64,000 bases of DNA, from contig CBDAOI010000004.1 in the NCBI GenBank assembly GCA_965198005.1, positions 1,613,779-1,677,778 on the forward strand, written 5' to 3'. Positions 7,400-64,000 of the stretch are shown one piece after another. Below the pieces are notes generated by a model. It was not told where the DNA came from, made no database searches, and worked only from the letters and a program-made list of their open reading frames with translations. The stretch comes from Spirochaetia bacterium (lineage in GTDB: Bacteria; Spirochaetota; Spirochaetia; SZUA-6; Bin103). How positions within the stretch are numbered: the stretch's first letter is position 1; the number at the start of each line of letters is the position of its first letter. The translations under genes and the position numbers were made by a program.

Positions 7400-7484
7400 C
7401 CCCGACAGTCAGGCTGCCGATAATGGTCCTGGCGGTGCGAACGCTGCGCGGACCGCCGCCTCGCCCTGGACGGAGCGGTTACTT

Positions 7485-11925: not shown

Positions 11926-13749
11926 ATGCTAATTGTACACACGAGGACCTTCGCGGTTGCGTTGGTCCTGGTTCTGACCGCAACCGGCCTCTGGGCCGCG
12001 GGCGCAGACGAGGAGCCGGCAGCCGCCGCCGAGAAGGAGATGGTGCTCGATCCGACCACCGGCGAGATGGTGGAGGCGCCGCAGTATGGCGGGACACTAA
12101 CCTATGGCCTGGTCAGTTGGGCCGCGAACGTTGATGACTGGTATGGCTACGCGAAGGATAACACCGGTTTGGTTAATGAGCAGCTCGCCATCTGGGACTG
12201 GGGAATAGATAGGGACGTCTGGGACTGGCGGATCTTCGCAGAGACACCTGTATGGGCCATAAACGGGGCACTGGCGGAAAGCTGGGAAACGCCCGACGAT
12301 ACCACCATTATCTTCAACATCCGCAGGGGCGTTCACTGGCACAACAAGGCGCCGATGAACGGTCGGGAGCTCACTGCCGAGGATGTAGAATACAACTTTC
12401 ACCGCTATTTTGGGAATAGGTTGGCAGGGACCGAGTTCAGTGAAGCCGAACCTACCCCAGCGGCACGTAACCTCGTAGCTTTGCCAGTCGAATCGGTAAC
12501 GGCCACCGACAAGTATACGATGGTCGTCAAGCTGGAGAAGCCAGACCTCAGCGCCGTGAAACACTTTATCGGCTACGGCTACGGTGGATCGGGTACGGTA
12601 ATGCCTCCGGAGGTCATCGAGCAACACGGCGACTATCAGGATTGGCGGAACACGGTCGGCACCGGACCCTATGAGCTGACGGAGGTGGTCGAAGGCAGCT
12701 CCAGGACCTGGACCAAGTATCCTGACTACTGGGGCTTCGACGAAAAATACCCGGACAACCGCCTGCCCTATGCTGACGAGATACGGGCCTTGCGGATGGC
12801 GGAGTCAGCAACCCGTCTGGCGGCTCTGCGCACGGGTAAGATTGATATCCTGGGTCCCGGCGCCAGTACATTGAGGTCGATCGACACGGTAGAGAGCCTC
12901 GAGCGGACCGACCCGGAAATCGAGCTGTGGCCGTTCAAGTTTCGGTCCGACAACCAATTCTATATCGTCCGTATGGACATACCGCCCTTGAATGATATCC
13001 GGGTGCGCCAGGCACTGCAGATGGCACTGGACCTGGAGACCGTTGTAGCTACCTACTTCAAGGGTCGTGGCGATGCGACTCCGCAGGGACATTTCGCCAA
13101 TGATGTGCCGGGGATTGGCACGCCATTTGAGGAGTGGCCCGAAGAGGTCAAGAAAACCTATCGGTATGACCCGGAAGGGGCCGAAGCGTTGCTTGATGCG
13201 GCCGGGTATCCGCGCGGCGCCGACGGCATCAGGTTCAAGATGGGCATGGCCTACTTTGAACGATACGATGTGAGCTATGCGGAACTGGTCGCCGGATACT
13301 GGCGCGAGATTGGCGTGGACACGGAGACTGATGTTTTAGCTGGTGGGTCAGCCGAAATAACAATGGTCTATAATGATCCAGATCAGGATACGTACATAAT
13401 TAGATGGGGGGAAGGGGCCTTCAGGTATGGTATCCCGGATCGTCTGACATCACAATTTTATAAAGGCAACCTCAGCACCGGCCACTTGAACGACCCCGAA
13501 TATGACGCCATGGCTGACGCCGTCATGGCCGCTACCACCCTCGAGGAGATGAATAGGCTGGTAAAAGAAATAAATATGTACATCACGGAACAGCATTTTA
13601 AGATATGGGGTCCTGAAACCCCACAGTACCAGGCAACGCAGCCGTGGGTCAAAGGTTTTAACGGAGAACTCGGATCTTTTTCCGACGGGTTGAAACACTT
13701 AGCCCGCATCTGGATTGACCAGGAGATGAAGGAAGCAATGGGTTTTTAG
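11926..13749 (+). CDS. ABC transporter substrate-binding protein, family 5 (peptide/nickel/opine type)
   Basis: 607 aa with N-terminal signal/lipobox-like hydrophobic segment. Conserved blocks are shared with the paralogs at 35597 and 54155. Confidence 0.85.
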   Translation: MLIVHTRTFAVALVLVLTATGLWAAGADEEPAAAAEKEMVLDPTTGEMVEAPQYGGTLTYGLVSWAANVDDWYGYAKDNTGLVNEQLAIWDWGIDRDVWDWRIFAETPVWAINGALAESWETPDDTTIIFNIRRGVHWHNKAPMNGRELTAEDVEYNFHRYFGNRLAGTEFSEAEPTPAARNLVALPVESVTATDKYTMVVKLEKPDLSAVKHFIGYGYGGSGTVMPPEVIEQHGDYQDWRNTVGTGPYELTEVVEGSSRTWTKYPDYWGFDEKYPDNRLPYADEIRALRMAESATRLAALRTGKIDILGPGASTLRSIDTVESLERTDPEIELWPFKFRSDNQFYIVRMDIPPLNDIRVRQALQMALDLETVVATYFKGRGDATPQGHFANDVPGIGTPFEEWPEEVKKTYRYDPEGAEALLDAAGYPRGADGIRFKMGMAYFERYDVSYAELVAGYWREIGVDTETDVLAGGSAEITMVYNDPDQDTYIIRWGEGAFRYGIPDRLTSQFYKGNLSTGHLNDPEYDAMADAVMAATTLEEMNRLVKEINMYITEQHFKIWGPETPQYQATQPWVKGFNGELGSFSDGLKHLARIWIDQEMKEAMGF

Positions 13750-13761
13750 GGCAAAAAAGGG

Positions 13762-13803
13762 GGAGCTGGGAGGCGGTCGCCTGCAGGCGCGCCTCCCAGC
13801 TCC
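13762..13803. promoter_or_regulatory. intercistronic A-run plus GC-rich stem-loop between substrate-binding protein and permease
   Basis: GGGAGCTGGGAGGCG...CGCCTCCCAGCTCCC perfect inverted repeat. Confidence 0.5.
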
Positions 13804-13837
13804 CACAAACGCCGTGTAGAATGGCGAGACCTGTCAC

Positions 13838-14851
13838 ATGAGAGCCTATATCATCAGGCGGTTATTGCTTATAATCCCGACCTTGTGGATATTGACCACT
13901 CTGGTCTTTCTCTTGGTCCGCTTCCTCCCGGGCAACGTAGTAGACATGATGGCGCTGAGGATGGAAATCTCAGGGTTCGGGGGAGCGGACACGATTGACC
14001 GTGAAGCTATGGAACGTATGCTGGGACTGGACGTGCCTGCCCACGTGCAGTATGGACGCTGGATGGGAGTGTTGCCGACCCCTGACTGGATTACCGGTGA
14101 GTCCCACTTTAGAGGTCTCCTCCAGGGCACCCTTGGAGAATCACTGATCACCTCGCATTTGACGGTAGAAAAGGAGATATTCGGTAGATTGCCGGTAACC
14201 ATTCAGCTCGGCATCATGGCGATCGTCATCGGGCTCGTGCTAGCGCTGCCCGTCGGCATTTACTCGGCGATTCGCCAGGATACGGCCGCCGACTACCTGG
14301 GGCGCACCGCGGCCGTCATCGGCCTGGCTACGCCGAACTTCTGGCTGGCCCTGATGGTCATGATCTTCCCAGTAATATGGTGGGGCTGGGCGCCCCCTCT
14401 GGAATACATTCCTTTCATCGAAGACCCACTGGGAAGTCTCGCGGGGTTATTCGTTCCCGGCCTGATTCTGGGGACTGCCTCGGCTGCAGCCACCATGCGG
14501 ATGACCCGCACCATGATGCTGGAGGTGCTCAGGCAAGACTATATCAGGACCGCCTGGTCCAAGGGTCTCAAGGAGAGGGTCGTTATTATGAGGCACGCTA
14601 TCAAGAATGCCCTCATACCCGTGGTTACCCTGATAGGTCTGCAGTTGCCTATCCTGATAGGTGGCTCCGTCATCATAGAGACCATCTTCAACCTGCCCGG
14701 GATAGGTCGCCTCGTGGTGTTCGCCCTCACTGAGAGAGACTACCCGGTGGTCTCCGGAGTAAATCTGTTTTTCGCGACCGGGGTCTTAGGAGTCAATCTA
14801 ATGATCGATCTGATCTATTTCTATTTGGACCCCAGGGTCCGCTACAGTTAG
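13838..14851 (+). CDS. ABC transporter permease (DppB/OppB-like)
   Basis: MRAYIIRRLLLIIPTLW...RTAWSKGLKERVVIMRHAIKNALIPVV. 6-TM BPD transporter signature. Confidence 0.85.
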   Translation: MRAYIIRRLLLIIPTLWILTTLVFLLVRFLPGNVVDMMALRMEISGFGGADTIDREAMERMLGLDVPAHVQYGRWMGVLPTPDWITGESHFRGLLQGTLGESLITSHLTVEKEIFGRLPVTIQLGIMAIVIGLVLALPVGIYSAIRQDTAADYLGRTAAVIGLATPNFWLALMVMIFPVIWWGWAPPLEYIPFIEDPLGSLAGLFVPGLILGTASAAATMRMTRTMMLEVLRQDYIRTAWSKGLKERVVIMRHAIKNALIPVVTLIGLQLPILIGGSVIIETIFNLPGIGRLVVFALTERDYPVVSGVNLFFATGVLGVNLMIDLIYFYLDPRVRYS

Positions 14852-14860
14852 AGAGGGCTT

Positions 14861-15793
14861 GTGAGCGACGCAGTCGAGGTACGATCCGCAGTAATCGCGT
14901 CAAAGAGACGTTCCCAGCTGGCCGAATTCTCTATAAGAATGGTGAAAGAGAAGCCGCTAGGTACTATCAGCGGGATTATCATATTGATATTGATTCTCGT
15001 CAGTATCTTTGCCGATGCTCTGGCACCCTATCCATACTGGGAAATGCACCTGGCAGACAGGCTGCAGGGCTCATCAGCCCAATATCTGCTGGGTACCGAC
15101 CAGTTGGGGCGAGACTTCTTGAGCCGCATCATCGTAGGGGCTCGTCTTTCCATATTTGTCGGTCTGGCGGCGACCGCTCTCAATGTTGTGGTCGCTGTCC
15201 TGATAGGCGGCATTTCAGGATTCCTTGGTGGTAAATTGGACCTGGTTATGCAGAGATTTGTCGATGCCTGGATGGCTTTCCCGGGGCTGCTCATATTGTT
15301 GACCGTGATGTCCATAGCGGGGCGGGGTGTGTTGCAGATAATACTGGTCCTGGGGATAGCGGGAGGGATCGGCACCTCGAGAGTAGTCAGGGGCGCGGTT
15401 ATCGGCATTAAAGAGAATGACTATTTTCTGGCGGCCCCGGCAGTTGGCAGCGGCGGCACCGCGACACTGATGCGACACGTCCTGCCCAATATCATGCCTG
15501 TCTTGATCATCATATTCAGCATCAGCGTCGGGGGGGTGATCATGAGTGAGGCCAGCTTGAGCTTCCTGGGATTCGGTCTGCCAGTCGAGGTTCCTAGCTG
15601 GGGAGGTCTGCTCAGCCGGGAAGGGCGCCAGTTCATGGAGGTGGCGCCGCGGCTGGCGATGTGGCCCGGTCTGTTCCTGACGGTGACGGTGTACTGCCTC
15701 AACATGTTCGGCGACGCGGTGCGGGATCTGCTCGACCCGCGGCTGCGGGGCGGTGGGGGTCACCTCGGGGCCGGCGGTGTCACGTCGGTTTAG
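14861..15793 (+). CDS. ABC transporter permease (DppC/OppC-like)
   Basis: LLGTDQLGRDFLSRIIVGARLS...KLDLVMQRFVDAWMAFPGLL. No ATPase gene follows. Confidence 0.85.
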   Translation: MSDAVEVRSAVIASKRRSQLAEFSIRMVKEKPLGTISGIIILILILVSIFADALAPYPYWEMHLADRLQGSSAQYLLGTDQLGRDFLSRIIVGARLSIFVGLAATALNVVVAVLIGGISGFLGGKLDLVMQRFVDAWMAFPGLLILLTVMSIAGRGVLQIILVLGIAGGIGTSRVVRGAVIGIKENDYFLAAPAVGSGGTATLMRHVLPNIMPVLIIIFSISVGGVIMSEASLSFLGFGLPVEVPSWGGLLSREGRQFMEVAPRLAMWPGLFLTVTVYCLNMFGDAVRDLLDPRLRGGGGHLGAGGVTSV

Positions 15794-21359: not shown

Positions 21360-21463
21360 CCGTCACCCGCCGATGGTAGATCCGGCTACGCGAGCCGGCT
21401 CAGCAGACCCCGGACGAGCCGCTTGACATCGCGGGCTGCGTGCGGCACCTTTGGTTGGTAGTT

Positions 21464-21535
21464 GGCCCCTTCGTCTATCGGCTAGGACATGAGACTCTCA
21501 TTCTCAAAAGAGGGGTTCGATTCCCCTAGGGGCTA
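21464..21535 (+). tRNA. tRNA-Glu (anticodon CUC), 72 nt, 4-nt variable loop, CCA not encoded
   Basis: Manual fold: acceptor GGCCCCU/AGGGGCU; anticodon stem UGAGA/UCUCA; loop CUCUCAU; T arm AGGGG-UUCGAUU-CCCCU. The body is near-identical to canonical bacterial tRNA-Glu. Confidence 0.7.
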
Positions 21536-21607
21536 ATCCAAGCGGGCGCTCGCTCAGGCTCGGCGCCTAGCCGCCGAATGCCCCGTACACGAGTTCGACG
21601 TGGCCGT

Positions 21608-34475: not shown

Positions 34476-35477
34476 TCATTCATAGCGCACCCTCGGATCC
34501 AGGACCGCGTAGACCAGGTCGATGAGCAGATTGATCACCACCACCCCAGTGGCGAACAACAGGTTGATGCCGGAGACCATCGGGTAGTCTCGGTCATTGA
34601 GGGCATGCAGAAAGAGGCGACCGAGCCCCGGCAGGTTGAAGATGTTCTCCATGATCACCGCGCCCCCCACCAGGATCGGCAACTGCAGGCCGATCAGGGA
34701 CACCACCGGGATGAGGGCATTCTTGGCGGCGTGCCGGATCACCACGGCCCGCTCCTTCAGCCCCTTGGACCAAGCGGTCCGGATATAGTCCTGCCTCAGC
34801 ACCTCCAGCATCATGGTGCGCGTCATCCGCATGGTGGCGGCCGCCGAGGCCGTTCCCAGTATCAGGCCGGGAATGAGGAACACCGCCAGATTCCCCAGCG
34901 GGTCTTTCGTGAAGGAAACCAGCTCCAGCGGCGGCGCCCAGCCCCACCAGATGGCCGGGTAGATCATGACCATGACGCCCAGCCAGAAGTTGGGCGTGGC
35001 CAGGCCGATGATGGCGACCGAGCGCCCCAGGAAGTCTGCGACCGTATCCTGGCGAATCGCCGAGTAGATGCCGACCGGCAGCGCGATCACCAGCCCGATG
35101 AGGATTGCCATCAAACCAAGCTCGATGGTTACCGGCAGTCTACCTAGTATCCTGTCCTCTACCGCCAAACCGCCATACAGTGATTCGCCAAGCGTACCCT
35201 GGAGGAGACCTTTGAAGTGGGACTCACCGGTAACCCGGTCAGGGGTCGGCAACACCCCTATCCAGCGTCCGTACTGCACCCAGACAGGCACATCCAATCC
35301 CAGCCGACGCTCGAGCGCTGCACGGTCAATCCCCCCCGTTACGTAGATCTGCACCCGAGCCTCCAATACGTCTATGACATCGCCGGGGATGAAGCGGACC
35401 GAGAGAAAGACCAGGATGCTCAAGATAAACAGGGTGGGGACGACCAGCAGCAGCCGCCGGATGATGTAGGCTCTCAT
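34476..35477 (-). CDS. ABC transporter permease (DppB/OppB-like)
   Basis: MRAYIIRRLLLVVPTLF...RTAWSKGLKERAVVIRHAAKNALIPVVSL. Confidence 0.85.
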   Translation of the reverse strand: MRAYIIRRLLLVVPTLFILSILVFLSVRFIPGDVIDVLEARVQIYVTGGIDRAALERRLGLDVPVWVQYGRWIGVLPTPDRVTGESHFKGLLQGTLGESLYGGLAVEDRILGRLPVTIELGLMAILIGLVIALPVGIYSAIRQDTVADFLGRSVAIIGLATPNFWLGVMVMIYPAIWWGWAPPLELVSFTKDPLGNLAVFLIPGLILGTASAAATMRMTRTMMLEVLRQDYIRTAWSKGLKERAVVIRHAAKNALIPVVSLIGLQLPILVGGAVIMENIFNLPGLGRLFLHALNDRDYPMVSGINLLFATGVVVINLLIDLVYAVLDPRVRYE

Positions 35478-35493
35478 GTCTTCGTAGTAAATG

Positions 35494-35525
35494 GGCGCCG
35501 GGAAGATCGAGGCTCCCGGCGCCCT
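35494..35525. promoter_or_regulatory. intercistronic GC-rich stem-loop between substrate-binding protein and permease
   Basis: GGGCGCCGGGA...TCCCGGCGCCC. Confidence 0.45.
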
Positions 35526-35596
35526 TCTCTGCAGGCAGAACGAGCGCGAAACGCCCGCGGACCCCGCTGCCAGGCGTGGTCCGCGAAGCCGTTGCC

Positions 35597-37378
35597 TCAG
35601 AATCCCATTTCTTTCTTCAGGGCACTATCAATCCAGAGACGGGAGAAGATCACTTCCTCGCCCCCGCTTGATATCAGTTCACCGTTATAGCCTATGAGCC
35701 ACGGCTGGTTCACCGAAAACTGTGGAAGCAAAGGACCATATATCGTCCAGTATTGCTCTAATGCGTACATGACCAAGTCTGGCACCAGCCTGTTCCGCTC
35801 CTCGACGGTGGTCGCGGCTGCGGCTGCGGCATGCATGGCGTCATAAGTCGGGTCGTTGACGCTGCTATTTACACCATCCGTGGTAAACCCACTCATGATT
35901 GACACTGCCCACTGCATGGAAACAGCATACGCCGTATCGTTACTGGCCATTTCGTATTCCTGAGCTTTTCTTCTGGGGCCCCATGCAGCGTTTGGCGTTA
36001 CTTCAACCTCCACATCAACGCCAATCTTCTTCCAGTATGAAGCGGCTAATTCCGCATAGTTTAGATCGAAACGCTCAAGGTGCATCAACACGGTCTTGAA
36101 TCTAGTGCCGTCCGCGCCGCGAGGATACCCGGCAGCATCAAGCAACGCTTCGGCCCCTTCCGGGTTATACGTGCGGCCCTTCTGGAGCTCCTCGGGCCAC
36201 TCTTCAAATGGGGTGGAACCGTCTGTCATGAAACGGCCCAGCCGCCCTTGAGGCATCGGATCTGAGAAACCCTTGAAGTACGAATTGTCAATGGTTTCGA
36301 AGTCCAGTGCCATGTTCATTGCCTTGCGCACCCTGATGTCGTCAAAGGGTTCTATCTGAGTGTTCATTGCAAAACCATTGTCCGATCGAAACCGTACCGG
36401 CCACAATTCGACGTCGGGGTTGGTCCGCTGGATGCTCTCTACCTGCTCGATAGTCCGGAGTTGAGCTACCCCGGCCACACCCACGTAATCCACCTTACCC
36501 GTGCGCATTGCCGCCAGTTGTGTTGCCACTTCGGGCATAATCAGAGCCCTTAACGTGTCAACATATGGCAAACGGTTTTCCGGGTATTTTTCGTCGTAGC
36601 CCCAGTAGCCAGGATTCTTGGTATAGGTGATGGAGCTGCCCTCGGTCCAGTCAGTCAGCTCAAAAGGACCGGTGCCGACCAGGTTGCTCCAAGCCGTTAC
36701 GTCCCCGTGTTCCTTGATCACCTCGGGGGGGTACATGACAGCAAGGGAGTCGTCGAGGATAACCATCAGCGTAAGGAGATTTGGCTCCTTCAGCTTGAAA
36801 ACCACCGTCCATTTGTCGGTGGCCGTTATGGATTCGAATGACACCCCAGTCAAAACACTATAAGCAGCGCTAGGTTCGGTGAAGCCGCTGCCCAGACCCA
36901 GAGTACGGTGAAAGTTATATACGACATCGTCGGCAGTCAGCTCCCGACCGTTCATTGGTGCCTTATCGTGCCAGTGAACGCCCTGGCGGACTTTGACGAC
37001 AACTGTTTTGTCGTCGGGCATTTCCCAGCTCTCCGCCAGAGCCCCCCTCGTGTACTTTGGAGCGGCCATGGTCGGGAAGTTATATTCGTCCCTGGGCGTT
37101 GCCCAGTCGCCGATGCCTAGCTTCTCTACGACCAGGCCCACGGCCACGACACCCCCACTCAAATGTTTGTCAGTATGCGAGGGCGATTCTTTCTTGACGT
37201 AGGTTATTGTCCCGCCATACTCCGGCGCGGTCACCATCTTGCCGGTGGTCGGGTCGGTCACCATTTCCTTCTCCATCGCCGCGGCCGGCTCCTCCTCCGA
37301 GGCAGCCGCCCAGAGGCCGGTGGCGGTCAGTGCGAGGCCACACAGCACGGCGAGCGAAATGCGCATTACGAAATGCAT
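35597..37378 (-). CDS. ABC transporter substrate-binding protein, family 5
   Basis: 593 aa. Paralog of 11926 and 54155. Confidence 0.85.
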   Translation of the reverse strand: MHFVMRISLAVLCGLALTATGLWAAASEEEPAAAMEKEMVTDPTTGKMVTAPEYGGTITYVKKESPSHTDKHLSGGVVAVGLVVEKLGIGDWATPRDEYNFPTMAAPKYTRGALAESWEMPDDKTVVVKVRQGVHWHDKAPMNGRELTADDVVYNFHRTLGLGSGFTEPSAAYSVLTGVSFESITATDKWTVVFKLKEPNLLTLMVILDDSLAVMYPPEVIKEHGDVTAWSNLVGTGPFELTDWTEGSSITYTKNPGYWGYDEKYPENRLPYVDTLRALIMPEVATQLAAMRTGKVDYVGVAGVAQLRTIEQVESIQRTNPDVELWPVRFRSDNGFAMNTQIEPFDDIRVRKAMNMALDFETIDNSYFKGFSDPMPQGRLGRFMTDGSTPFEEWPEELQKGRTYNPEGAEALLDAAGYPRGADGTRFKTVLMHLERFDLNYAELAASYWKKIGVDVEVEVTPNAAWGPRRKAQEYEMASNDTAYAVSMQWAVSIMSGFTTDGVNSSVNDPTYDAMHAAAAAATTVEERNRLVPDLVMYALEQYWTIYGPLLPQFSVNQPWLIGYNGELISSGGEEVIFSRLWIDSALKKEMGF

Positions 37379-38261: not shown

Positions 38262-40420
38262 TTCTTGAGATTTCTTTCGGGCAGCCGCGGCAGCCGAGAG
38301 CCCCTCGCGGCGCCGACTCGGGCGCATCGCCCCTCCAGAGCCGTCATTCGCCGGCGATGTGGCCGTCCGCAGGCCGTTCACCGTCCACGTCGGCCTCACA
38401 GCGGCCCGCTGAGGGCATTCCAGCCCCTCGGGGGTAGCCTGGGTACGAGCGCCAGGCTAACTGGCATATGACAGAGGGTGAAAGTCCCTCGGAACGAAGG
38501 AGCAGCCAATCCACGTTTCTCCGCGAGCCGTGCGTTGGCACCTGCGAGGGTGCAGGCGAAGCGTCGGCAGCGGTGCGTGCGGGCAGAGTTATGGAGCGCC
38601 GCAAAATACGACATCTGGAGTGCCGAGACTCTGTACTCGGTCGAAGGCAACACCGGTCGAGCCAGTATGGTGAGGATCGACCGGGCTCCACGGCGTCGAA
38701 GAACTCAGGCACGTGCGTACGTCATATACCGGGACCTGGGAGGTCTTCGGGTCGTCCCGGCGAGTCGTCGCCGGGACCGCGGAGGGAAGGCGTGAGGCTG
38801 GACCAAAGATGAACGACCCGAAGGAGTCGGACATGGGCATAGTAGCGGCGAAGCCGGCGAACAAGGGAGCGCAAGCGACTGCGGAGACGGTGGAGCGAAG
38901 GCCCATGACCAACGGGAATTCGCAAGGTCAAAGCACGGGCCGGACGCAGAGTCGGGCAACCGTGACACAGGCGGCCGAGCGGATACGGCAATTCGTAAAG
39001 AGAGAACCGCAGGAGAAACTCACTGCGCTGCTGCACCACGTGACGCCGGAAGCGCTGCGGGTGGCCTATTACGCGCTGAAGCGTGAAGCGGCCCCGGGGG
39101 TGGACGGGATGACGTGGCGGGAGTACGAGACGGGGTTGGAAGTGCGCTTGCACGACCTGCACCGGCGAGTACACACAGGAGCGTACCGAGCGACCCCGGT
39201 ACGGCGGGTCAACATCGACAAGCCGGACGGAGGCACACGACCGCTGGGGGTGGCCGCGCTGGAGGACAAGATCGTCCAGAAGGCCGTGGTGGATGTGATC
39301 CTGACACCGATCTATGAGGAGGAATTTCTCGGGATCAGCTATGGGTTTCGACCGGGGCGCGGGGCACACGATGCGTTGGACGCACTGGCCTACGCCATCG
39401 AACGGCGCGAAGTGAACTGGATATTGGACGCGGACATTCGCGCCTACTTCGACACGATCTCGCGGGACTGGTTGATCAGATTCCTGGAGCATCGGATTGG
39501 AGATCGGCGGGTGCTGCGGCTGATAAAGAAGTGGCTGCGCGCTGGGGTACTGGAAGAAGGCCGACAGATCGACGCGGGGCGGGGTACAGCGCAAGGGTCG
39601 GTGATTTCACCGATGCTCGCGAATATATACTTGCACTACGTGTTGGACCTGTGGGTCACCAAGAAGTGGCGGCCGCAGGAGGCGCGCGGAGACATGATCA
39701 TAGTGCGCTACGCAGATGACTATGTCGCCGGGTTCGAGCATCGTGACGATGCGGAACGCTTCCTGCGGGAACTGAAGGAGCGATTCAGAGGCTTCGAGCT
39801 GGAACTGAACGCCGACAAGACCCGACTCCTCGAGTTTGGACGGTATGCCGAAAGGAACCGCCGAGCACGTGGGGAAGGGCGACCGGAGACGTTCGACTTT
39901 CTGGGTTTCACGCATTATTGCAGGAAGGACAGGAAAGGACGCTTCGGGCTGGGGCGGAAGCCAATTCGGAAGCGGATGAATCGTACGCTGAAGAGGATCA
40001 AGATCGAGCTCCGCAGACGAATGCATGATGACGTGATGGAAACCGGGCGCTGGCTGGGACGGGTACTGCGCGGATGGCTCAACTACTACGCGGTACCCAC
40101 CAGCTACCGCTATCTGCACCGATTCGTGTGGCGTCTGCGAGGAATCTGGGTAAAGATTCTACGCCGGAGGTCCCAGAAGGACCGATTCTCCTGGGCTTGG
40201 ATGCTGGCGATCAGCATCAAGCTGTGGCCCCAACCCCGAATCGTACACTCATGGCCGGACCGGCGATTTGCCGTCAACCACCGAAGGTAGGAGCCGGATG
40301 GTTTAACGACCACGTCCGGATCTGTGCGGGGGGCGCCGGGTAACCGGCGTTCCTACCGCGCCCCCCTGCAACACCCGTCAACGCCGATTCCCGGCACCGC
40401 TGGCTCCGTATTGACCGCGC
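38262..40420 (+). mobile_element. group II intron (retroelement). The RNA boundaries are approximate.
   Basis: Contains a complete reverse-transcriptase/maturase ORF. There is a GNRA-capped GC-rich hairpin 30-80 nt after the ORF stop (40324-40370) in the position expected for domain V. Structured GC-rich RNA-like sequence precedes the ORF. Confidence 0.6.
38809..40290 (+). CDS. group II intron-encoded reverse transcriptase/maturase (RT domains 0-7 plus X domain, no En/HNH domain)
   Basis: AAPGVDGMTWREYE..., RAYFDTISRDWLIRFLEH, QGSVISPMLANIYLHYVLD, IVRYADDYVAGF (YADD), and the X-domain WLNYYAVPTSYRYL. The ORF track starts at 38713; the likely true start is near 38809-38833. Confidence 0.85.
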   Translation: MNDPKESDMGIVAAKPANKGAQATAETVERRPMTNGNSQGQSTGRTQSRATVTQAAERIRQFVKREPQEKLTALLHHVTPEALRVAYYALKREAAPGVDGMTWREYETGLEVRLHDLHRRVHTGAYRATPVRRVNIDKPDGGTRPLGVAALEDKIVQKAVVDVILTPIYEEEFLGISYGFRPGRGAHDALDALAYAIERREVNWILDADIRAYFDTISRDWLIRFLEHRIGDRRVLRLIKKWLRAGVLEEGRQIDAGRGTAQGSVISPMLANIYLHYVLDLWVTKKWRPQEARGDMIIVRYADDYVAGFEHRDDAERFLRELKERFRGFELELNADKTRLLEFGRYAERNRRARGEGRPETFDFLGFTHYCRKDRKGRFGLGRKPIRKRMNRTLKRIKIELRRRMHDDVMETGRWLGRVLRGWLNYYAVPTSYRYLHRFVWRLRGIWVKILRRRSQKDRFSWAWMLAISIKLWPQPRIVHSWPDRRFAVNHRR

Positions 40421-44223: not shown

Positions 44224-44296
44224 GGGCCGCTAGCTCAGTAGGTAGAGCAACAGCCTTTTAAGCTGTGGGTGCGGGGTTCGATCCCCCGGCGGCTCA
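44224..44296 (+). tRNA. tRNA-Lys (anticodon UUU), 73 nt
   Basis: GGGCCGC acceptor; D arm UAGCUCAGUAGGUAGAGCA; anticodon arm ACAGC-CUUUUAA-GCUGU; T arm CGGGG-UUCGAUC-CCCCG. Confidence 0.85.
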
Positions 44297-53527: not shown

Positions 53528-54154
53528 ATGGTGGGATGCAGTCAATCGTGACTACATCTGGGTATAGCTGTGCCTCACCTGCGGAGGGCTTGAGTGACTT
53601 ATAACACGTCAACGCTTATGACACTCTGTTCCCCTGACAGCCGCTCGCCGAGAATTGCTGAAAATCAGCTCGCGGCGGGCTTGCTTAATGGTGAGGAGTC
53701 CCCCCCCACACACACACTTTTCGTACAACAGAGCAACCGAGAACAACTAACCGCTCCGGCTGATCGCTCCGTGCGCGTCCCCGCGCACGCCGTCGCCTTC
53801 ACCACGACGCCTGCGCCCACGGCGGCAGCCAGCCGTGGCGCCGGCTCGTGCGATCGCCGACCGAGCCAGCGCAGCGACGTCGTCACCTTCACAGCCCGCC
53901 ACCGCCCGGCGCCGGCCTTGCCGACCACTCGGACTCGCTGCCTCGCCGACCGACACAGGCGTGGGGTGCCACGCCTGTCCACGCATACAAGGAGGCACGG
54001 GATGACACCCAAGACGGGATACGACTAACGCCCCAAGACCGCCGCGCGGGGCGGACACGGAACGACCGAGGGTGTCGCCCTTGCTTTCGAGAGTAGGCGA
54101 GGGGTCGGCAGTGGAATCGGTACTCTCAGAATCAACAATTCGAGGAGATTCTCA
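53528..54154 (+). promoter_or_regulatory. about 630-nt 5' leader with a conserved structured 5' block, a C8(CA)5 tract and a hairpin next to the ribosome-binding site
   Basis: See the 37379-37961 leader. The internal hairpin GC(G/T)CGCCGAGA-TTGCTGAAAATCAGC-TCGCGGCG(C/G)GC carries a G-C to U-G covariation between the two copies. Confidence 0.5.
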
Positions 54155-55939
54155 ATGAGTAATCTGTTCAAAACATGCGTCGCCGTAGTGTTCGGTCTCG
54201 TGCTGATCGCCATCGGCGTCGGGGCAAGCCCGGCCGGGGAAGAGGAGCCGGCCGCGGCGATGGAGAAGGAGATGGTGCTCGACCCCACCACCGGCAAGAT
54301 GGTGTCGGCGCCGGAGTATGGCGGCACATTCACCTGGGGCGATGCCACCGGGGCTCCGCACTGTGACCCTCACATCCATGGCTGGGGGCCACGGGCCATC
54401 GACGGCGTTGCAGAGAGGCTAGGCATCAGGGACTGGGCAGCAGATAGGAACGAAATCAGCTTTTCAGACTCTTATACTCCTCTCCGTTTCGTGAGAGGGG
54501 CGCTGGCGGAAAGCTGGGAGATGATCGACTCACTGACGTATGTCTACCACATCCGCAAGGGCGTTCGCTGGCACGACAAAGCGCCGATGAATGGTCGGGA
54601 GTTCACTGCCCAGGATGTCGTATACAACTTTCACCGTTATACGGGTTCGGGCAGCGGCTTCACCGAACCTAGCGCCGCTGCTGGCACACTCGCTTCGATA
54701 CCACTCGAATCGATAACCGCCAGCGACGATTCGACGGTTGTCTTCAAGCTGACGCAGCCAAAGGTAGACTTGCTGGATGTCCTTGCCATCGACTGGAGTG
54801 CCGCTATGTTACCCCCAGAGGTAATCGAGCAATACGGCGACCTGACGGACTGCGACAACATGGTCGGTACCGGGCCCTATATGCTGACAGAATGGGTCGA
54901 TAACACGTCTATGACGTATTCCAAGAATCCTGACTACTGGGGCTTTGACGAAAAATATCCGGAGAACCGCTTGCCCTACATCGACCAGATAAACCGGCTA
55001 ATCATGCCGGAAAAGGAAACACAGCTGGCGGCGCTACGCTCGGGTAGGCTCGATTACATCGGTCAGTCCGGCGGGGGTCAGTTACAAGTGGCCCAGGTGG
55101 AGAACCTACAGCGGACCAACCCCGAAATCGTTTTATACCCGTGGGCCTTTCGGTCGGAGACCTCTGTTGCATTCAACCTGCGCCACCCGTCGCCCTTTCA
55201 AGACATCAGGGTTCGCAAGGCGATGCAGATGGCCATTGATCTGGAGACCATCAACAATACTTACTTTCGTGGCTTTGCAATGACGAAACCCCAAGGAATC
55301 ATAGGAGACGGTCTGAAGGGGTACTACATCCCATTCGAAGAGTGGCCCGAAGAGACCAGGAAAGTCTTTGCGTATGACCCGGAAGGGGCCGAAGCGTTGC
55401 TTGATGAGGCTGGGTATCCGCGCGGTGCGGATGGCATTCGATTCAAGACCGTCCTGAACCCCGTGCCCTCGTGGGATGTGGGTTATCAAGAAATAGCCGC
55501 TGAATACTGGGCTGCGATTGGCGTTGACGTAGAGGTTAAGATAACTGAAGTCGCTCAACTGATGGCGCTGGTAACTGAAGGTACTTATGAAGGGATGGCC
55601 TATATGGATATCGGCAATGACGGCTCGATTCAATGGCTGATGAGTGTTCTTCAAATCGGAGCGCAATGGGGCCGCACAGGACATCAGGACCCGGTGATGG
55701 ACGCCAAGGCAAAAGCCGCTATGGCCGCTACCAGGCTCGAGGAGCAGCAGCGGCTGGTGGCGGAGGCAGATATGTACTCGATCCAGCAGCATTGGTTCAT
55801 ATGGGGTCCTAAAGTTCCCCAATTTGAGGCGGTGCAGCCGTGGGTGATAGGTTTTAACGGTGAAATCTGGTATACTACACATGCGCCTTTCGAGCGCCTG
55901 TGGATCGATAGTGCGCTGAAGAGCGAAATGGGTTTCTGA
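54155..55939 (+). CDS. ABC transporter substrate-binding protein, family 5
   Basis: 594 aa. Paralog of 11926 and 35597. Confidence 0.85.
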   Translation: MSNLFKTCVAVVFGLVLIAIGVGASPAGEEEPAAAMEKEMVLDPTTGKMVSAPEYGGTFTWGDATGAPHCDPHIHGWGPRAIDGVAERLGIRDWAADRNEISFSDSYTPLRFVRGALAESWEMIDSLTYVYHIRKGVRWHDKAPMNGREFTAQDVVYNFHRYTGSGSGFTEPSAAAGTLASIPLESITASDDSTVVFKLTQPKVDLLDVLAIDWSAAMLPPEVIEQYGDLTDCDNMVGTGPYMLTEWVDNTSMTYSKNPDYWGFDEKYPENRLPYIDQINRLIMPEKETQLAALRSGRLDYIGQSGGGQLQVAQVENLQRTNPEIVLYPWAFRSETSVAFNLRHPSPFQDIRVRKAMQMAIDLETINNTYFRGFAMTKPQGIIGDGLKGYYIPFEEWPEETRKVFAYDPEGAEALLDEAGYPRGADGIRFKTVLNPVPSWDVGYQEIAAEYWAAIGVDVEVKITEVAQLMALVTEGTYEGMAYMDIGNDGSIQWLMSVLQIGAQWGRTGHQDPVMDAKAKAAMAATRLEEQQRLVAEADMYSIQQHWFIWGPKVPQFEAVQPWVIGFNGEIWYTTHAPFERLWIDSALKSEMGF

Positions 55940-56070
55940 GCATGTCGCCGTAGGCGACTTGCAGTGGACCCGCCTTCAGGCGGGGCACGAGCGGCTCCGC
56001 CGTTGGCTGAATCAATCGCCCGTTGGGCGATTGAAACGGGAGTCGCTGCGCGACTCCACGAGCACCGCGG

Positions 56071-56119
56071 GCGCCGGGAGGACGCTTCCGAGTGCGCTTC
56101 AGAGCGCGCTTCCCGGCGC
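56071..56119. promoter_or_regulatory. intercistronic GC-rich stem-loop between substrate-binding protein and permease
   Basis: GCGCCGGGAGG...CTTCCCGGCGC. Confidence 0.45.
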
Positions 56120-56136
56120 TCATTTACCACGAAGAT

Positions 56137-57090
56137 ATGAGAGCCTATGTCATCAGGCGCGTATTGCTGGTCATCCCCACTCTGTTCATATTGACCATAG
56201 TCGTCTTTCTCTCGGTCCACTTCCTCCCGGGCGATGTCATAGACGCCATGGTGGGTGACATGCAATACCAAATGGGCTTCGACCGTGCAGCTCTCGAGCG
56301 TATGCTGGGATTGGATGTGCCTGTCCCCGTGCAGTATGGACGCTGGATAGGAGGTATCTTCCTGCACGGCACACTTGGCGAATCGCTGTGGGGCGATAGC
56401 CCGGTAGAGGAGTTGCTACGAGACGGGCTGCCGGTAACGCTGGGGCTTGGCTTCCTGGCTATCGTCATCGGGCTGGTGATCGCGCTGCCGGTCGGCATCT
56501 TCTCGGCGATCCGTCAGGGTACCTTTACCGACTACGCGGGGCGCTCGGTCGCCATCATCGGCCTGGCAACGCCCAACTTCTGGATAGCAGTCATGGTCTT
56601 GCTGTATCCGGCCATCTGGTGGGGCTGGACGCCGCCCTTGCAGTGGGTTCCCTTCACCGAAGACCCGCTGGGGAATCTCGGGGTGCTGATCATTCCCAGT
56701 CTGATTCTGGGGACCTACCTGTCGGCCAGCACCATGCGGATGATCCGCACCACGATGCTGGAGGTGCTCCGGCAGGATTATGTGCGGACGGCCTGGTCGA
56801 AGGGGTTGCGGGAGCGGGCCGTGGTGATGCGACATGTCGTCAAGAATGCCCTCATCCCGGTGGTTTCGCTGGTCGGCCTGCAGTTGCCGATCCTGGTCGG
56901 CGGGTCGGTGATCATCGAGAACATATTCAACCTGCCGGGCGTAGGTCGGCTCATGGTAGATGCGCTGGGACGCAGAGACTACCCGGTGGTCTCCGGTGTG
57001 AACCTGATGTTCGCCACTGGGGTCATGGCGATCAATCTGGTTACCGACCTGATGTATCCCTATCTGGACCCCCGACTCCGTTATGAATGA
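56137..57090 (+). CDS. ABC transporter permease (DppB/OppB-like)
   Basis: MRAYVIRRVLLVIPTLF... The ORF-track start at 56092 is probably upstream of the real start. Confidence 0.85.
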   Translation: MRAYVIRRVLLVIPTLFILTIVVFLSVHFLPGDVIDAMVGDMQYQMGFDRAALERMLGLDVPVPVQYGRWIGGIFLHGTLGESLWGDSPVEELLRDGLPVTLGLGFLAIVIGLVIALPVGIFSAIRQGTFTDYAGRSVAIIGLATPNFWIAVMVLLYPAIWWGWTPPLQWVPFTEDPLGNLGVLIIPSLILGTYLSASTMRMIRTTMLEVLRQDYVRTAWSKGLRERAVVMRHVVKNALIPVVSLVGLQLPILVGGSVIIENIFNLPGVGRLMVDALGRRDYPVVSGVNLMFATGVMAINLVTDLMYPYLDPRLRYE

Positions 57091-60779: not shown

Positions 60780-61000
60780 GGCCGCATCGCCTGCGCCTTG
60801 GACGCGTCGCCGCCGACGGCAGCGAGTACGTGCCCGGCTTCACGGTGTCGGCGGTGGTCGACACCACGGGCGCCAGCGACGCCTTCGACGCCGCGCTGGC
60901 CGTCGGGCCGGCCGAGGGCCGCCCCCTCCCCAAGGCCGCCCGTTTCGCCAACGCCGTAGCGGTGCTATGCTGCACCGCGCTCGCTACCCTGCCGGCCCTA
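60780..61000 (+). pseudogene. C-terminal fragment of a PfkB-family sugar kinase (ribokinase-like)
   Basis: VVDTTGASDAFDAALAVG...AARFANAVAVLCCTALA matches the PfkB C-terminal GAGD/anion-hole block. No N-terminal part is present. Confidence 0.4.
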
Positions 61001-61165
61001 CCGTCGGCGGGCGGAGGTGGACGCATTCGCAGCATCCGGAGCCGGTGTTGCCTGATTGCGCTACAATAGGTGGTTCCCAATCGCGCGTTACGACGATAAG
61101 ATGTGTATTGGCATGTACCTGAGTTACGTGGCACCGGATGGCGGGCTGTGCACGCATGCTGCTTC

Positions 61166-61195
61166 TTGCGTATCCCACGGAATCCTCGCTATACC
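61166..61195 (+). promoter_or_regulatory. candidate promoter for the GHKL-STAS-PIN operon
   Basis: TTGCGT, 18 nt, TATACC, about 28 nt upstream of the TTG start with a GGAGA ribosome-binding site. Confidence 0.3.
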
Positions 61196-61222
61196 GCGAA
61201 TTGAGACTGACGGAGAACCTGA

Positions 61223-62092
61223 TTGACTTTCCATTTGCAAGCCATTTGTAGCGGTCGCTCGGGATTCGAGCGGCTTAGCCAACTCGCCAAGTCGACCGAG
61301 CATCTTTTCGCCGACCATCTTGAACTCAACATTTCGCAAGTAAGCTCGTTCGACGGCAACATGGCCGCTCCGCTGGGAGTTGTACTGGCGCATGTTACGG
61401 ATGACTTCAACTTTGTTGAGATTGTTGCCATCCCCTCAGGTATCAAGCGAGTACTCCGAAAGAACCGATTTCTTACGCACTTTCGCTATAGTCCGATGGA
61501 TGACATTCATGGTACTACGATGCCCTATCGTCGCCTTCGACTGACTGATGAAGGAGCATTCGAGGACTACATCCAACTGCAACTCAAAGATAAGGCCATT
61601 CCCGAGATGTCCGCAAAAGCGAGCCAAAGATTCAAGCAGAAGGTATTTGAAGTATACCAAAATGCTGTTTCTCACTCGGAATCTGACGTTGGCGTGTTCG
61701 TTTGCGGCCACATGTTCCCGCGCGAAAATCGTCTCGACTTTACCATCGCTGATGGCGGTATGGGTATTCGTGATGCTGTGCGTGGTTACTTCAAAACTGA
61801 TAGAATCAGTTCGATTGCAGCACTAAAATGGGCTCTGGAGCAGAATCACACCACAAAACGTGGTAGTCATCCTGGTGGCCTTGGTCTTGGGTTTCTTCGA
61901 GCATTTTCCGCTCTGAACGAAGGAAAGATTCGGATTGTCTCGCGGTTCGCGTTTTATGAATTTGACTGTGGACAAGAAGCATTCCACAAAATGCAGTATG
62001 ACTTCCCCGGAACCGCCGTAACGGTTCAGATCAACACTGCCGATACAGGGAAGTATATTCTACCCGCAGAGATCACTACGGAGGAACCATGA
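61223..62092 (+). CDS. GHKL-type ATPase / putative serine kinase (RsbW-like HATPase_c at residues about 150-260) with an uncharacterised N-terminal domain of about 140 aa. TTG start.
   Basis: N-box FEVYQNAVSHSE, G1 box IADGGMGI, G2 box HPGGLGLGFL. Stop overlaps the next start (ATGA). Confidence 0.6.
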   Translation: MTFHLQAICSGRSGFERLSQLAKSTEHLFADHLELNISQVSSFDGNMAAPLGVVLAHVTDDFNFVEIVAIPSGIKRVLRKNRFLTHFRYSPMDDIHGTTMPYRRLRLTDEGAFEDYIQLQLKDKAIPEMSAKASQRFKQKVFEVYQNAVSHSESDVGVFVCGHMFPRENRLDFTIADGGMGIRDAVRGYFKTDRISSIAALKWALEQNHTTKRGSHPGGLGLGFLRAFSALNEGKIRIVSRFAFYEFDCGQEAFHKMQYDFPGTAVTVQINTADTGKYILPAEITTEEP

Positions 62093-62457
62093 CCGAACCG
62101 ATTCTCGTGCGAGTGTACGACATCGTAGGGGGCCCGCTCGGCGTGTCAACCGAGGATGGTCAGCGCTTGCATGACAAGATTGCGCCACTCCTCAAGGCCG
62201 GTACGCCGGTCGTTCTTTCATTCGAACGCATCGAGACGATGATATCGGCATTTCTCAACGCAGCCGTTGGGCAACTCTACGGTGAGTTGTCTGAAGATAG
62301 TGTCGATCACCTGCTGTCTGTCAGCGATATGGCTCTCGACGATAGCCACGTGTACCAACACGTTGTCACGAACGCGAAGGCTTACTTCAAAGACCCTGGC
62401 AAGTTTGAAAGGGCATGGAGAGAAGAATTGGGCTCCGAAATGGATGATGAAGAATAA
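62089..62457 (+). CDS. STAS-like DUF4325-family protein (anti-sigma-antagonist-like)
   Basis: VVLSFERIETMISAFLNAAVGQLYGEL...VVTNAKAYF matches the DUF4325 pattern (V.LDF.G.E.M...FLN.A.G.LY......VV..A...F) closely. Confidence 0.6.
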   Translation: MTEPILVRVYDIVGGPLGVSTEDGQRLHDKIAPLLKAGTPVVLSFERIETMISAFLNAAVGQLYGELSEDSVDHLLSVSDMALDDSHVYQHVVTNAKAYFKDPGKFERAWREELGSEMDDEE

Positions 62458-62998
62458 AGCACACAACTTGTCTGGGTATTCATTCCAAAGGGGCGAGTCG
62501 TTGCTGTTCGACACTAACGTGTGGCTCTATCTCTATCCCGCACCGGCGGCGAGCGTCTATCGGCATGCAGCAAGGTACAGCAGCGGGTTAAAATCAATGC
62601 TTCAGGCAGGCGCGCAGATGGTTGTCGACGCAGTCGTGCTTAGTGAGTACTTGAATCGTTATTGTCGTATCGAGTGGAGCGCAAACCATAGGGCAATGTA
62701 TCGAGACTTCAAGGCATTCCGTATGTCAGCTGATTTCGCGCCGGCTGGGCAAGCAGCGGCTGCCTATGCAAATCAGATACTAAAGCTTGGCAAGCGTTAC
62801 GATCACCCGTTTTCGCTAATCGATCTCATGCGAATACTGACCGATTTCGAATCTGGATTGTGCGATTTCAACGATGGTTTGCTAGTGGAGACCTGCCGCC
62901 ATCATGGATGGAAAATCGTGACGAACGATTCTGATTTTGTCTCTGGGGGTATCGAAGTCTTGACCACGAACCCCAAGCTCTTGAAAGCGTGTCCATAG
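62443..62998 (+). CDS. PIN-domain nuclease
   Basis: LLFDTNVWLYL (first acidic motif) and KIVTNDSDF (C-terminal motif). The start overlaps the end of the STAS-like gene. Confidence 0.6.
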
Positions 62999-63119
62999 AC
63001 CGTATGGGTATGCGGAGAAGTGACGCGGAGAGATCTGAGGGGAAGCAGGCTCTCCGGTTGGTGTACGACACGCCGCTGCCGCCGACCCGCTCGCCACGGT
63101 GGCTGCGGCCGCCGGCAGC

Positions 63120-64000
63120 TCAGTCGGTGGGCAACGCCGCGCCGTACAGAAAGTCGACCAGGTTGATATGCCGAATGCCGTCGAGGGGTCCCGGCGCGAC
63201 GGGGTCCAGCGAGAGCATCACCTTGGCGTGGGCGTCGCCGGTGCCGAGCAGGGCGGACTTCTCCCGCTCGAGTGTCTCCGGGGACTCGATCAGATAACTC
63301 ACCTGCACGTACACGCGGCCCTGCGCGCCTTCGGCGACGAAGTCGACCTCGTGGGCGCCGGCAACCCCCACCGCGACCCGGTAACCCCGGCGCAGCAACT
63401 CGTGGAACACCAGATTCTCCAGGTCGCCGGCAATCCACCGTTCCTGCGTGCCCAGCAACCCATGACGCAGGCCGAGGTCGCCCAGGTAGTACTTGCTGCC
63501 GATCTGCAGATGGCGCCTGCCGCGCAGGTCGAACCGGTCGACTTTGTCCAGCACGAACGCTTCGCACAGATACGAGAGGTAGTTGAGGACCGTATCGGCC
63601 GTGCCGCGTCGCTGATGGGACCGCATGAAGTCGGAGATTCTCTTGCCCGACGTGAGATTGCCGACGTTGTCCATCGCGAAGCGGACGATCGACTCGAACG
63701 TGTCCGGATCGCGAATGGATCGCCGCTGCACGACGTCCCGCAGCGCGATCGTGCTGTAGACGTCGCCCAGCATCTGCCGCACGAGGTCCGGAGAAAGGTC
63801 GGTGTGGAGCAGCCCCGGCAGGCCGCCCAACGTTCGGTAGCGCGCGAACAGCTCGGCTCTCGACGGCTTCCCCGGTTGGGTCGCCGCGAAGAGGTCCGCG
63901 AACTCGCGCAGCGAAAGCGGCAGCACGCGAAGCGTGAGGTAGCGCCCGGCAAGCCGCGTGGCCAGCTCCCCGGCGAGCAGCGTCGAGTTCGAGCCGGAGA
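63120..64000 (-). CDS. AAA+ ATPase with DUF4143-like C-domain (COG1373-type), 5' end beyond the window
   Basis: GSNSTLLAGELATRLAGRYLTLRVLPLSLREFADLF ... YLGDLGLRHGLLG pattern. Confidence 0.55.
   Translation of the reverse strand, partial: SGSNSTLLAGELATRLAGRYLTLRVLPLSLREFADLFAATQPGKPSRAELFARYRTLGGLPGLLHTDLSPDLVRQMLGDVYSTIALRDVVQRRSIRDPDTFESIVRFAMDNVGNLTSGKRISDFMRSHQRRGTADTVLNYLSYLCEAFVLDKVDRFDLRGRRHLQIGSKYYLGDLGLRHGLLGTQERWIAGDLENLVFHELLRRGYRVAVGVAGAHEVDFVAEGAQGRVYVQVSYLIESPETLEREKSALLGTGDAHAKVMLSLDPVAPGPLDGIRHINLVDFLYGAALPTD

Follow-up and report, generated by a model that had tools for sequence, protein, structure and literature searches.

The question raised by this locus is what a kinase-like gene, a STAS-like gene and a PIN nuclease gene, joined in one AT-rich operon, are likely to encode together. 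The window (the whole 64,000-nucleotide stretch of DNA that was analyzed) comes from an uncultured, high-GC bacterium of the Spirochaetia. In an earlier note made from the letters of the sequence, the three genes were read as a tripartite module in which a kinase and a STAS antagonist gate a PIN RNase, and the triad was not recognized as a named system. The locus is, we have little doubt, an intact vapKSC operon, and as such it would be a toxin-antitoxin and anti-phage module of three components under the control of a kinase; this assignment is based on homology, gene order and conserved residues. The operon was named by Chambers, Rani, Min, Villa and Corbett (EMBO J 2026; PMC13373217; PDB 9Z7O), whose VapKSC came from Escherichia sp. 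E4736.

Operon layout and surroundings

All three genes lie on the forward strand. The first, vapK (61223–62092), encodes a STAS plus GHKL serine-kinase-like protein of 289 amino acids. It is followed by vapS (62089–62457; 122 amino acids), for a DUF4325 STAS-like putative antitoxin whose C-terminus has a short helix and an acidic tail, and by vapC (62444–62998; 184 amino acids), for a PIN-domain putative toxin of the VapKSC type. The ATG of vapS overlaps the TGA of vapK as ATGA at 62089–62092, and vapS and vapC overlap by 14 nucleotides (62444–62457). The proposal of a single coupled operon is thereby borne out, as is the second overlap itself, for which the coordinates 62443–62457 had been given; its start is one base off. 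A Shine-Dalgarno-like GGAG (61212–61215, forward strand), read from the sequence, lies 7 nucleotides 5′ of the TTG start of vapK. This start codon is supported because homologues align from residue 1, with S10, G14 and E16 invariant. Scans for promoters and terminators gave sites no more frequent than in shuffled sequence, and none 5′ of vapK.

Composition profiles place the operon in a low-GC island (approximately 61050–63000, ∼0.51 GC). GC content is 0.47–0.55 over 61200–63000, versus 0.68–0.74 upstream and 0.63–0.69 downstream, and of all kilobases in the window the two that cover the island have the lowest GC. For the triad the value is 0.506, versus 0.653 for the remaining window. The AT-richness that had been judged by eye is thus confirmed, and the proposal that the island was acquired horizontally matches the evidence. 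When att-like or terminal repeats were sought around the island, the matches were all short, and no direct or inverted flanking pair stood out as a border.

Both flanking features named in the earlier note were found. Directly 5′ of the island, only the 3′ part of a sugar-kinase gene of the PfkB type is left (60805–61029, forward strand); it matches the 3′ end of the PfkB gene in a related locus, L001, at 77% DNA identity. In L001 the PfkB gene is intact and abuts vapK; no intact PfkB open reading frame is present in the window. On the other side, an AAA_14/DUF4143 (COG1373) ATPase gene (63120–64000, reverse strand; Pfam DUF4143) converges on the operon and runs off the window end. Its full-length copy in the near-identical contig L046 matches the PADLOC PDC-S01 model PDLC04787 (E = 2.3e-120). 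This PDC-S01-like defence candidate is a neighbour that lies outside the operon. Because the surroundings are otherwise made up of metabolic genes, the locus is not a classical defence island.

Homology to the Escherichia proteins

VapS, the product of gene 2, was assigned to DUF4325 by Pfam (E = 3.5e-14), as had been predicted, and was without a Pfam match to an HTH. The single sequence matches chain 9z7o_A, “Escherichia VapS”, with E = 2.1e-9, and the family profile does so with E = 6.7e-17, aligned over profile positions 9–116, which cover the STAS domain and the C-terminal region. In these alignments Ser53 (codon 62245–62247, forward strand) falls on chain residue 66, which is S48 in the chain numbering of −17 to 116, so that it would be equivalent to the phospho-acceptor of Escherichia VapS. 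The column is S or T in 150 of 163 homologues and in every VapS copy examined from VapK-linked loci.

For VapC the prediction of a PIN domain was likewise upheld (Pfam PIN, E = 4e-8). The family profile matches 9z7o_C, “Escherichia VapC”, with E = 4.4e-9; the protein alone matches the same chain over its full length with E = 0.0034, the sole PDB sequence match below E = 0.01. Four acidic motifs are invariant (D23, E68, D141/D144 and D162/D164). By alignment, Asp23 (codon 62510–62512, forward strand) is the probable equivalent of catalytic D28 of Escherichia VapC. The AF2 model, built from a 20-sequence alignment, was without beta-strands (pLDDT 60, pTM 0.49) and was too poor for a fold search. 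NCBIfam models gave only weak VapC and SpoIIAB matches across the triad. Note also that vapC was missed by some gene callers in the near-identical contigs L046 and L047.

VapK has the same plan as Escherichia VapK, to which it is homologous: a CapK-like STAS domain (approximately residues 1–90; 61223–61492, forward strand), which includes the invariant F43, and then a GHKL, or Bergerat-fold, kinase domain (approximately residues 130–275; 61610–62047, forward strand). The N, G1 and G2 boxes of the latter, which had been likened to those of RsbW, are invariant in the homologue alignment, and the family as a whole (∼290 amino acids) is strongly conserved. Comparison was made with the Escherichia VapK sequence taken from the supplementary AF3 model of PMC13373217. 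BLASTP gave 28% identity over 275 amino acids (E = 7e-33), and hhalign gave a probability of 99.8%. A PDB sequence search with the VapK profile returned nothing meaningful, and Pfam placed HATPase_c below threshold. An AF2 model of VapK (pLDDT 73, pTM 0.77) was obtained, and in structure the kinase domain comes closest to SpoIIAB and RsbW. The sole PADLOC match was the GHKL-like segment of a DrmA model (E = 4e-9). We read this as the sharing of a domain and not as membership in DISARM.

The alignment is inexact at one residue. Opposite Escherichia F54, which belongs to the predicted ssDNA site (CapK W68), the window copy has S42; the next residue is F43 (codon 61349–61351, forward strand), which is invariant in the family, and many homologues have Phe at position 42 as well. 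From the alignment, F43 is likely to be equivalent to F54, though shifted by one position. Because the proposed ssDNA-contact residue aligns inexactly, there is also an outside chance that in this environmental clade VapK responds to some signal that is not ssDNA.

The triad in other genomes

Related loci were recovered from contigs representing one genome per species. The same kinase-STAS-PIN gene order was found in 38 of these 41 loci, in at least ten phyla, which answers the question of co-occurrence of DUF4325, HATPase_c and PIN genes that had been put forward as a check. Hosts include Rhodothermales, Latescibacterota, Gemmatimonadota, Spirochaetia, Planctomycetales, Elusimicrobia, Verrucomicrobiota, Acidobacteriota and Methylomonas. 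The triad has a lower GC content than its flanks in all 41. Values of dN/dS relative to L001 are 0.14–0.19 for vapK, vapS and vapC, and by this sequence comparison all three genes are under purifying selection. Independent metagenome contigs encode a VapS with 100% identity to that of the window, and for L046 the identity is also 100% for VapC and 99.7% for VapK. Scanning IMG/VR viral contigs with the VapK alignment gave no relatives and thus no evidence that this clade is phage-borne.

Some related loci are decayed, with a truncated vapC, a frameshifted vapK or an orphan vapS, and some keep vapK and vapS with a truncated vapC directly 5′ of a DUF1156 methylase gene. In certain orphan VapS copies, which are otherwise intact, the phospho-serine is replaced by Ala or Pro; they lie beside DUF1156-methylase defence islands, in loci that lack the cognate vapK and have no vapC or just a remnant of it. 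There is an outside chance that such non-phosphorylatable proteins are not simple decay products and act as kinase-insensitive “anti-VapC” immunity factors, or that they have been re-used by the neighbouring system.

Proposed mode of action, alternatives and annotation

In the Escherichia system, VapS is the antitoxin of VapC. Toxicity depends on D28, and VapC D28A is neither toxic nor protective. For neutralization VapS needs its C-terminus, and the phosphomimetic S48E no longer neutralizes; a crystal structure of the VapS–VapC complex shows direct binding. The operon gives ∼2 logs of protection against phage Bas42, and this protection is lost in VapC D28A, VapS S48A and VapK F54A. Escherichia VapK was insoluble. 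Its kinase activity toward VapS, its activation by ssDNA and the identity of the RNA cut by VapC are inferred in that study (PMC13373217), and likewise here for the window copy.

By homology to this published model, the window proteins would work as follows. In unstressed cells VapS, through its STAS domain and C-terminal helix, would bind the PIN nuclease VapC and hold it inactive in a VapS2–VapC2 complex. Upon DNA damage or phage infection, VapK would be activated by ssDNA bound in the groove that separates its STAS and GHKL domains; active VapK would then phosphorylate the conserved serine of VapS, S53 in the window copy. Phospho-VapS would dissociate from VapC, and the free nuclease would arrest growth, probably by cleaving tRNA or rRNA. 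The gating scheme proposed in the earlier note is supported by the same homology.

The window operon and that of Escherichia agree in gene order and in translational coupling. Each encodes a kinase of the STAS plus GHKL type, then a STAS protein that ends in a helix, and then a PIN nuclease. All three proteins are homologous, and conservation extends to the phospho-acceptor serine, the Bergerat ATP-binding motifs and the catalytic aspartate of the PIN domain. Both operons belong to a system that is sporadic across phyla and often near defence genes. They differ in that VapK is 28% identical while VapS and VapC are recognizable mainly at the profile level, in the lengths of VapC (184 amino acids here, 203 in Escherichia) and VapS (122 and 116), and in the shift of the proposed ssDNA-contact aromatic by one alignment position. 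As in type II VapBC systems, a PIN toxin would be neutralized by a small protein encoded upstream, with a C-terminal segment reaching the active site. In contrast to VapB antitoxins, VapS has a STAS (DUF4325) fold and is not a DNA-binding protein of the RHH, AbrB, HTH or PHD type; release is proposed to occur by phosphorylation, not by antitoxin proteolysis, and a third gene, the kinase, is obligatory in VapKSC.

Three other readings were weighed against a vapKSC operon. In a CapK-CapS-type transcriptional switch, the kinase would phosphorylate a STAS repressor and thereby de-repress a downstream operon, of which the PIN gene would be regulated cargo. CapK-CapS itself is a DNA-damage-activated kinase paired with a STAS-wHTH repressor of a downstream immune operon, and VapK is a homologue of CapK, with the STAS plus GHKL architecture common to both (PMC13373217). 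Both pairs also have a STAS substrate with a conserved phospho-serine and ssDNA as the proposed trigger, and the loci in which vapK and vapS precede a methylase gene fit such a switch. However, CapK has an additional N-terminal HTH and CapS a C-terminal wHTH, and neither is present in the window proteins: VapK opens with its STAS domain, and VapS, at 122 amino acids versus ∼182 for CapS constructs, has no Pfam HTH. VapS instead matches the VapC-binding VapS of 9Z7O over both the STAS domain and the C-terminal region, and the output proposed here is direct release of a bound nuclease where CapS represses transcription. We consider this switch very improbable. Even less credence is given to a partner switch of the RsbW/RsbV or SpoIIAB/SpoIIAA type acting on a sigma factor encoded elsewhere, with the PIN gene an unrelated neighbour. 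The structural matches of the kinase domain and the STAS-like gene 2 would suit it, but among the genes of L046 none within 10 kb was called as a sigma factor, in line with what had been remarked of the vicinity. In addition, the PIN gene overlaps vapS by 14 nucleotides and accompanies the pair in nearly all related loci across phyla, and the homologous VapS binds VapC directly in the crystal structure (PMC13373217). In those switches the kinase sequesters a sigma factor, whereas here the STAS protein would sequester a PIN nuclease; the window kinase has its own fused STAS domain, and the operon is without a PP2C phosphatase gene.

The locus might also be horizontally acquired DNA in decay, a remnant without function, given that it adjoins PfkB pseudogene debris, that related loci have lost or broken one or more of the genes, and that some gene callers miss vapC in near-identical contigs. 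Against this, none of the three open reading frames is truncated, no catalytic or regulatory residue is missing, both the Shine-Dalgarno sequence and the coupled starts are preserved, and the low dN/dS values and the near-complete protein identity between independent contigs point the same way. Such decay is as hard to credit as the CapK-CapS-type switch, and an intact vapKSC operon is the reading we retain.

The triad is already known and is not a new system; the novelty implied in the earlier note is refuted by the 2026 description (PMC13373217), a published identity under another name having been anticipated in the earlier note as what would overturn it. Coupling of a PIN domain to DUF4325 had itself been recorded as group PIN.4 by Matelska et al. 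in 2017 (PMC5499597), who set this context apart from contexts of the toxin-antitoxin type. The gene pair, as described there, is the same as that found here; that survey makes no mention of a kinase and proposes no mechanism. Pfam, NCBIfam and PADLOC v2 do not recognize the triad as a system, and the relevance of the present result is mainly for annotation: the genes should be labeled vapK, vapS and vapC. To the 289 IMG instances already published (PMC13373217), the survey also adds groups dominated by metagenome-assembled genomes, including Latescibacterota, Rhodothermales, Gemmatimonadota and Spirochaetia, and reveals an operon that is consistently AT-richer than its hosts across the surveyed loci. 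A homologue from a different clade, for example the window copy, could help the biochemistry of the family if it proves more soluble than Escherichia VapK.

Operon organization and identity

The three overlapping reading frames described in the earlier note are present on the forward strand. Gene 1 (vapK, 61223–62092) starts with TTG, preceded by GGAG 7 nt upstream; gene 2 (vapS, 62089–62457) starts with its own ATG, which overlaps the gene 1 TGA as ATGA; and gene 3 (vapC, 62444–62998) overlaps gene 2 by 14 nt. The TTG start is supported because homologues align from residue 1. Gene 1 is a member of a family of ∼290-aa proteins that is tightly conserved, the best 120 of 211 matches having E ≤1e-97 and 53–85% identity. 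The Bergerat motifs noticed earlier are invariant among homologues (N-box, E143 and N147; G1, D177xGxG181; G2, G218-G-L-G-L), and the Pfam HATPase_c match is sub-threshold (20.9 bits, cut-off 26.4). The 140 N-terminal residues previously considered unassigned form a STAS domain plus linker, because precomputed PF13466 STAS_2 matches are found in many homologues. The sole PADLOC match of the operon aligns gene 1 (61223–62092) residues 139–273 with positions 142–273 of the 1750 in DrmA model PDLC02567 (E 4.3e-9). Some DISARM DrmA proteins would therefore carry a related GHKL-like N-terminal segment.

The assignments of gene 2 as DUF4325 STAS-like and gene 3 as a PIN nuclease were confirmed with Pfam (E 3.5e-14 and E 4e-8, respectively). 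Homologues of gene 2 are ∼118–122 aa and share an invariant core (S20, D23, G24, S44, F55 and the motif GQxYG), while those of gene 3 are ∼183 aa and share four invariant PIN acidic positions (D23, E68, D141/D144 and D162/D164). When family profiles were compared with PDB sequences, gene 2 matched 9z7o_A, “Escherichia VapS”, at E 6.7e-17 (E 2.1e-9 for the window protein alone), and gene 3 matched 9z7o_C, “Escherichia VapC”, at E 4.4e-9 (E 0.0034 for the window protein alone, its only match below E 0.01). PDB 9z7o was reported by Chambers, Rani, Min, Villa and Corbett (EMBO J 2026, PMC13373217; bioRxiv preprint February 2026). [quoted passage not shown] Coupling of PIN and DUF4325 was recorded earlier as group PIN.4 by Matelska et al. 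(PMC5499597). The Escherichia VapK sequence, taken from the supplementary AF3 model of PMC13373217, is 28% identical to gene 1 across 275 residues (E 7e-33) and matches the gene 1 family profile with an hhalign probability of 99.8%.

Note that gene calls stored for L046 and L047, two contigs near-identical to the window, omit vapC entirely (L046:10356–10907, equivalent to window 62444–62998) and place the vapK start at an internal ATG, which shortens the protein from 289 to 243 aa. In L048, vapC is called with a length of 133 aa, so automated annotation under-reports the operon.

Conservation and genomic setting

To survey the triad, the gene 1 alignment was scanned against one genome per species, yielding 41 loci in which genes were located by phmmer. 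The co-occurrence suggested for checking in the earlier note was found in 38 of these, with all three genes tightly packed in the same order, which speaks against the refutation named in that note, a lack of joint conservation. The exceptions are three distant GHKL-only matches in Clostridia. Gene 1 identity among surveyed loci is 35–63%, and hosts of the triad include Rhodothermales, Latescibacterota, Gemmatimonadota, Spirochaetia, Planctomycetales, Elusimicrobia, Verrucomicrobiota, Acidobacteriota, Bryobacterales and Methylomonas. No relative was found in the IMG/VR viral contigs scanned with the VapK alignment. In the published IMG survey, 36% of 289 vapKSC instances lie within 10 kb of PADLOC hits (PMC13373217).

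The AT-rich character first judged by eye was borne out by the composition profile: GC is 0.47–0.55 at 61200–63000, where the two kilobases lowest in GC anywhere in the 64-kb window lie, versus 0.68–0.74 just upstream and 0.63–0.69 downstream. In all 41 loci the triad has lower GC than the DNA on either side (mean 0.527 versus 0.608). In L001, a ∼70% GC genome, it has 51% GC and directly follows an intact PfkB gene (L001:5060–6004) that overlaps the vapK start. Relative to the L001 copy, dN/dS is 0.14–0.19 per gene, with dS near saturation at ∼1.2–1.6.

Both flanks named in the earlier note were found. Upstream is a 225-bp PfkB 3′ remnant (60805–61029, forward strand) with 77% DNA identity to the end of the L001 gene. 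This shared PfkB end 5′ of vapK points to either an old common insertion, after which most of the window PfkB was lost, or a PfkB 3′ fragment that travelled with the island. Downstream, a convergent AAA_14/DUF4143 ATPase of COG1373 type (63120–64000, reverse strand; full length at L046:11032–12246) matches the PADLOC single-gene defence candidate PDC-S01 (E 2.3e-120), which is listed beside several published vapKSC operons (PMC13373217). VapS and VapC of L046, a metagenome contig, are 100% identical to those of the window and VapK is 99.7% identical; its neighbours are metabolic (ABC transporter genes, an MR_MLE enzyme and an amidohydrolase).

Elsewhere in the window, a group II intron occupies 38481–40290 (forward strand), comprising an Rfam group-II-D1D4-6 element (38481–38705, 169.5 bits) followed by a 525-aa reverse-transcriptase ORF (38713–40290, forward strand). 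Three paralogous clusters of SBP_bac_5 solute-binding and ABC permease genes (11926–15793, 34476–37378 and ∼54000–57000) have GC of 0.54–0.58 versus the window average of ∼0.65 and are not defence-related. The forward-strand genes for tRNA-Glu(CTC) (21463–21536) and tRNA-Lys(TTT) (44224–44296) are not adjacent to the island.

Orphan vapS and truncated vapC

The phospho-acceptor residue of VapS has been called absolutely conserved (PMC13373217). Ala or Pro occupies this column in 13 of 163 VapS homologues, none of the 13 coming from loci found through VapK. Five variant contigs were examined, of which L049 and L050 share one variant, and all carry orphan vapS genes (L049:8001–8360, L050:3058–3417, L051:8001–8357, L052:4026–4382 and L053:6001–6360). 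No vapK was detectable near any of the five, and vapC is either missing or survives as a remnant of 18–33 codons. These genes adjoin DUF1156 methylase, AAA_15/21, TIR (TIR_2), SIR2 (SIR2_2) or DUF499 genes in defence-like islands; the DUF1156 proteins of L049 and L051 carry a fused Y1 transposase domain. Loss of the site fits the model because without the kinase there is no selection on it, and the variants slightly qualify the published conservation. In a Latescibacterota lineage (L002, L003, L004 and L015, about 7238–7537), vapK and vapS are intact and vapC is cut to 99 aa, without PIN motifs 3 and 4. A DUF1156 methylase gene of 960 aa follows, its start overlapping the vapC stop.

Mechanism and alternatives

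The earlier proposal that the kinase and STAS protein gate the PIN nuclease is supported by homology to published VapKSC, whose mechanism most likely applies to the window copy. VapS would keep VapC inactive; ssDNA from DNA damage or infection would switch on VapK, which would phosphorylate VapS S53, and VapC set free would cause growth arrest. In the VapS2–VapC2 crystal structure, the C-terminal helix of VapS lies ∼6 Å or less from the VapC active site (PMC13373217). Toxicity of Escherichia VapC requires D28, and its neutralisation requires the VapS C-terminus and is abolished by S48E (PMC13373217). The Escherichia operon gives ∼2 logs of protection against phage Bas42, which is abolished by VapC D28A, VapS S48A or VapK F54A (PMC13373217). 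VapC D28 aligns with window D23, and VapS S48 (chain residue 66 in a chain numbered −17 to 116) with S53. VapK F54 aligns with S42, and the family-invariant F43 one position later is, from the alignment, probably its equivalent. Even for Escherichia, phosphorylation of VapS by VapK, activation of VapK by ssDNA and an RNA target of VapC have been inferred; Escherichia VapK is insoluble, and the biochemical ssDNA evidence is for CapK only (PMC13373217).

Transcriptional control of the kind exerted by the related CapK–CapS system, with its STAS-wHTH repressor, is disfavoured by the lack of an HTH in VapK or VapS. A sigma-factor partner switch is likewise disfavoured, given the tightly linked PIN gene and the finding that no sigma factor was called within 10 kb in L046. 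Intact ORFs and key residues, together with low dN/dS, argue against a dead remnant. The vapKSC module is real, selected and mobile, and the window carries a typical, though unlisted, copy of it.
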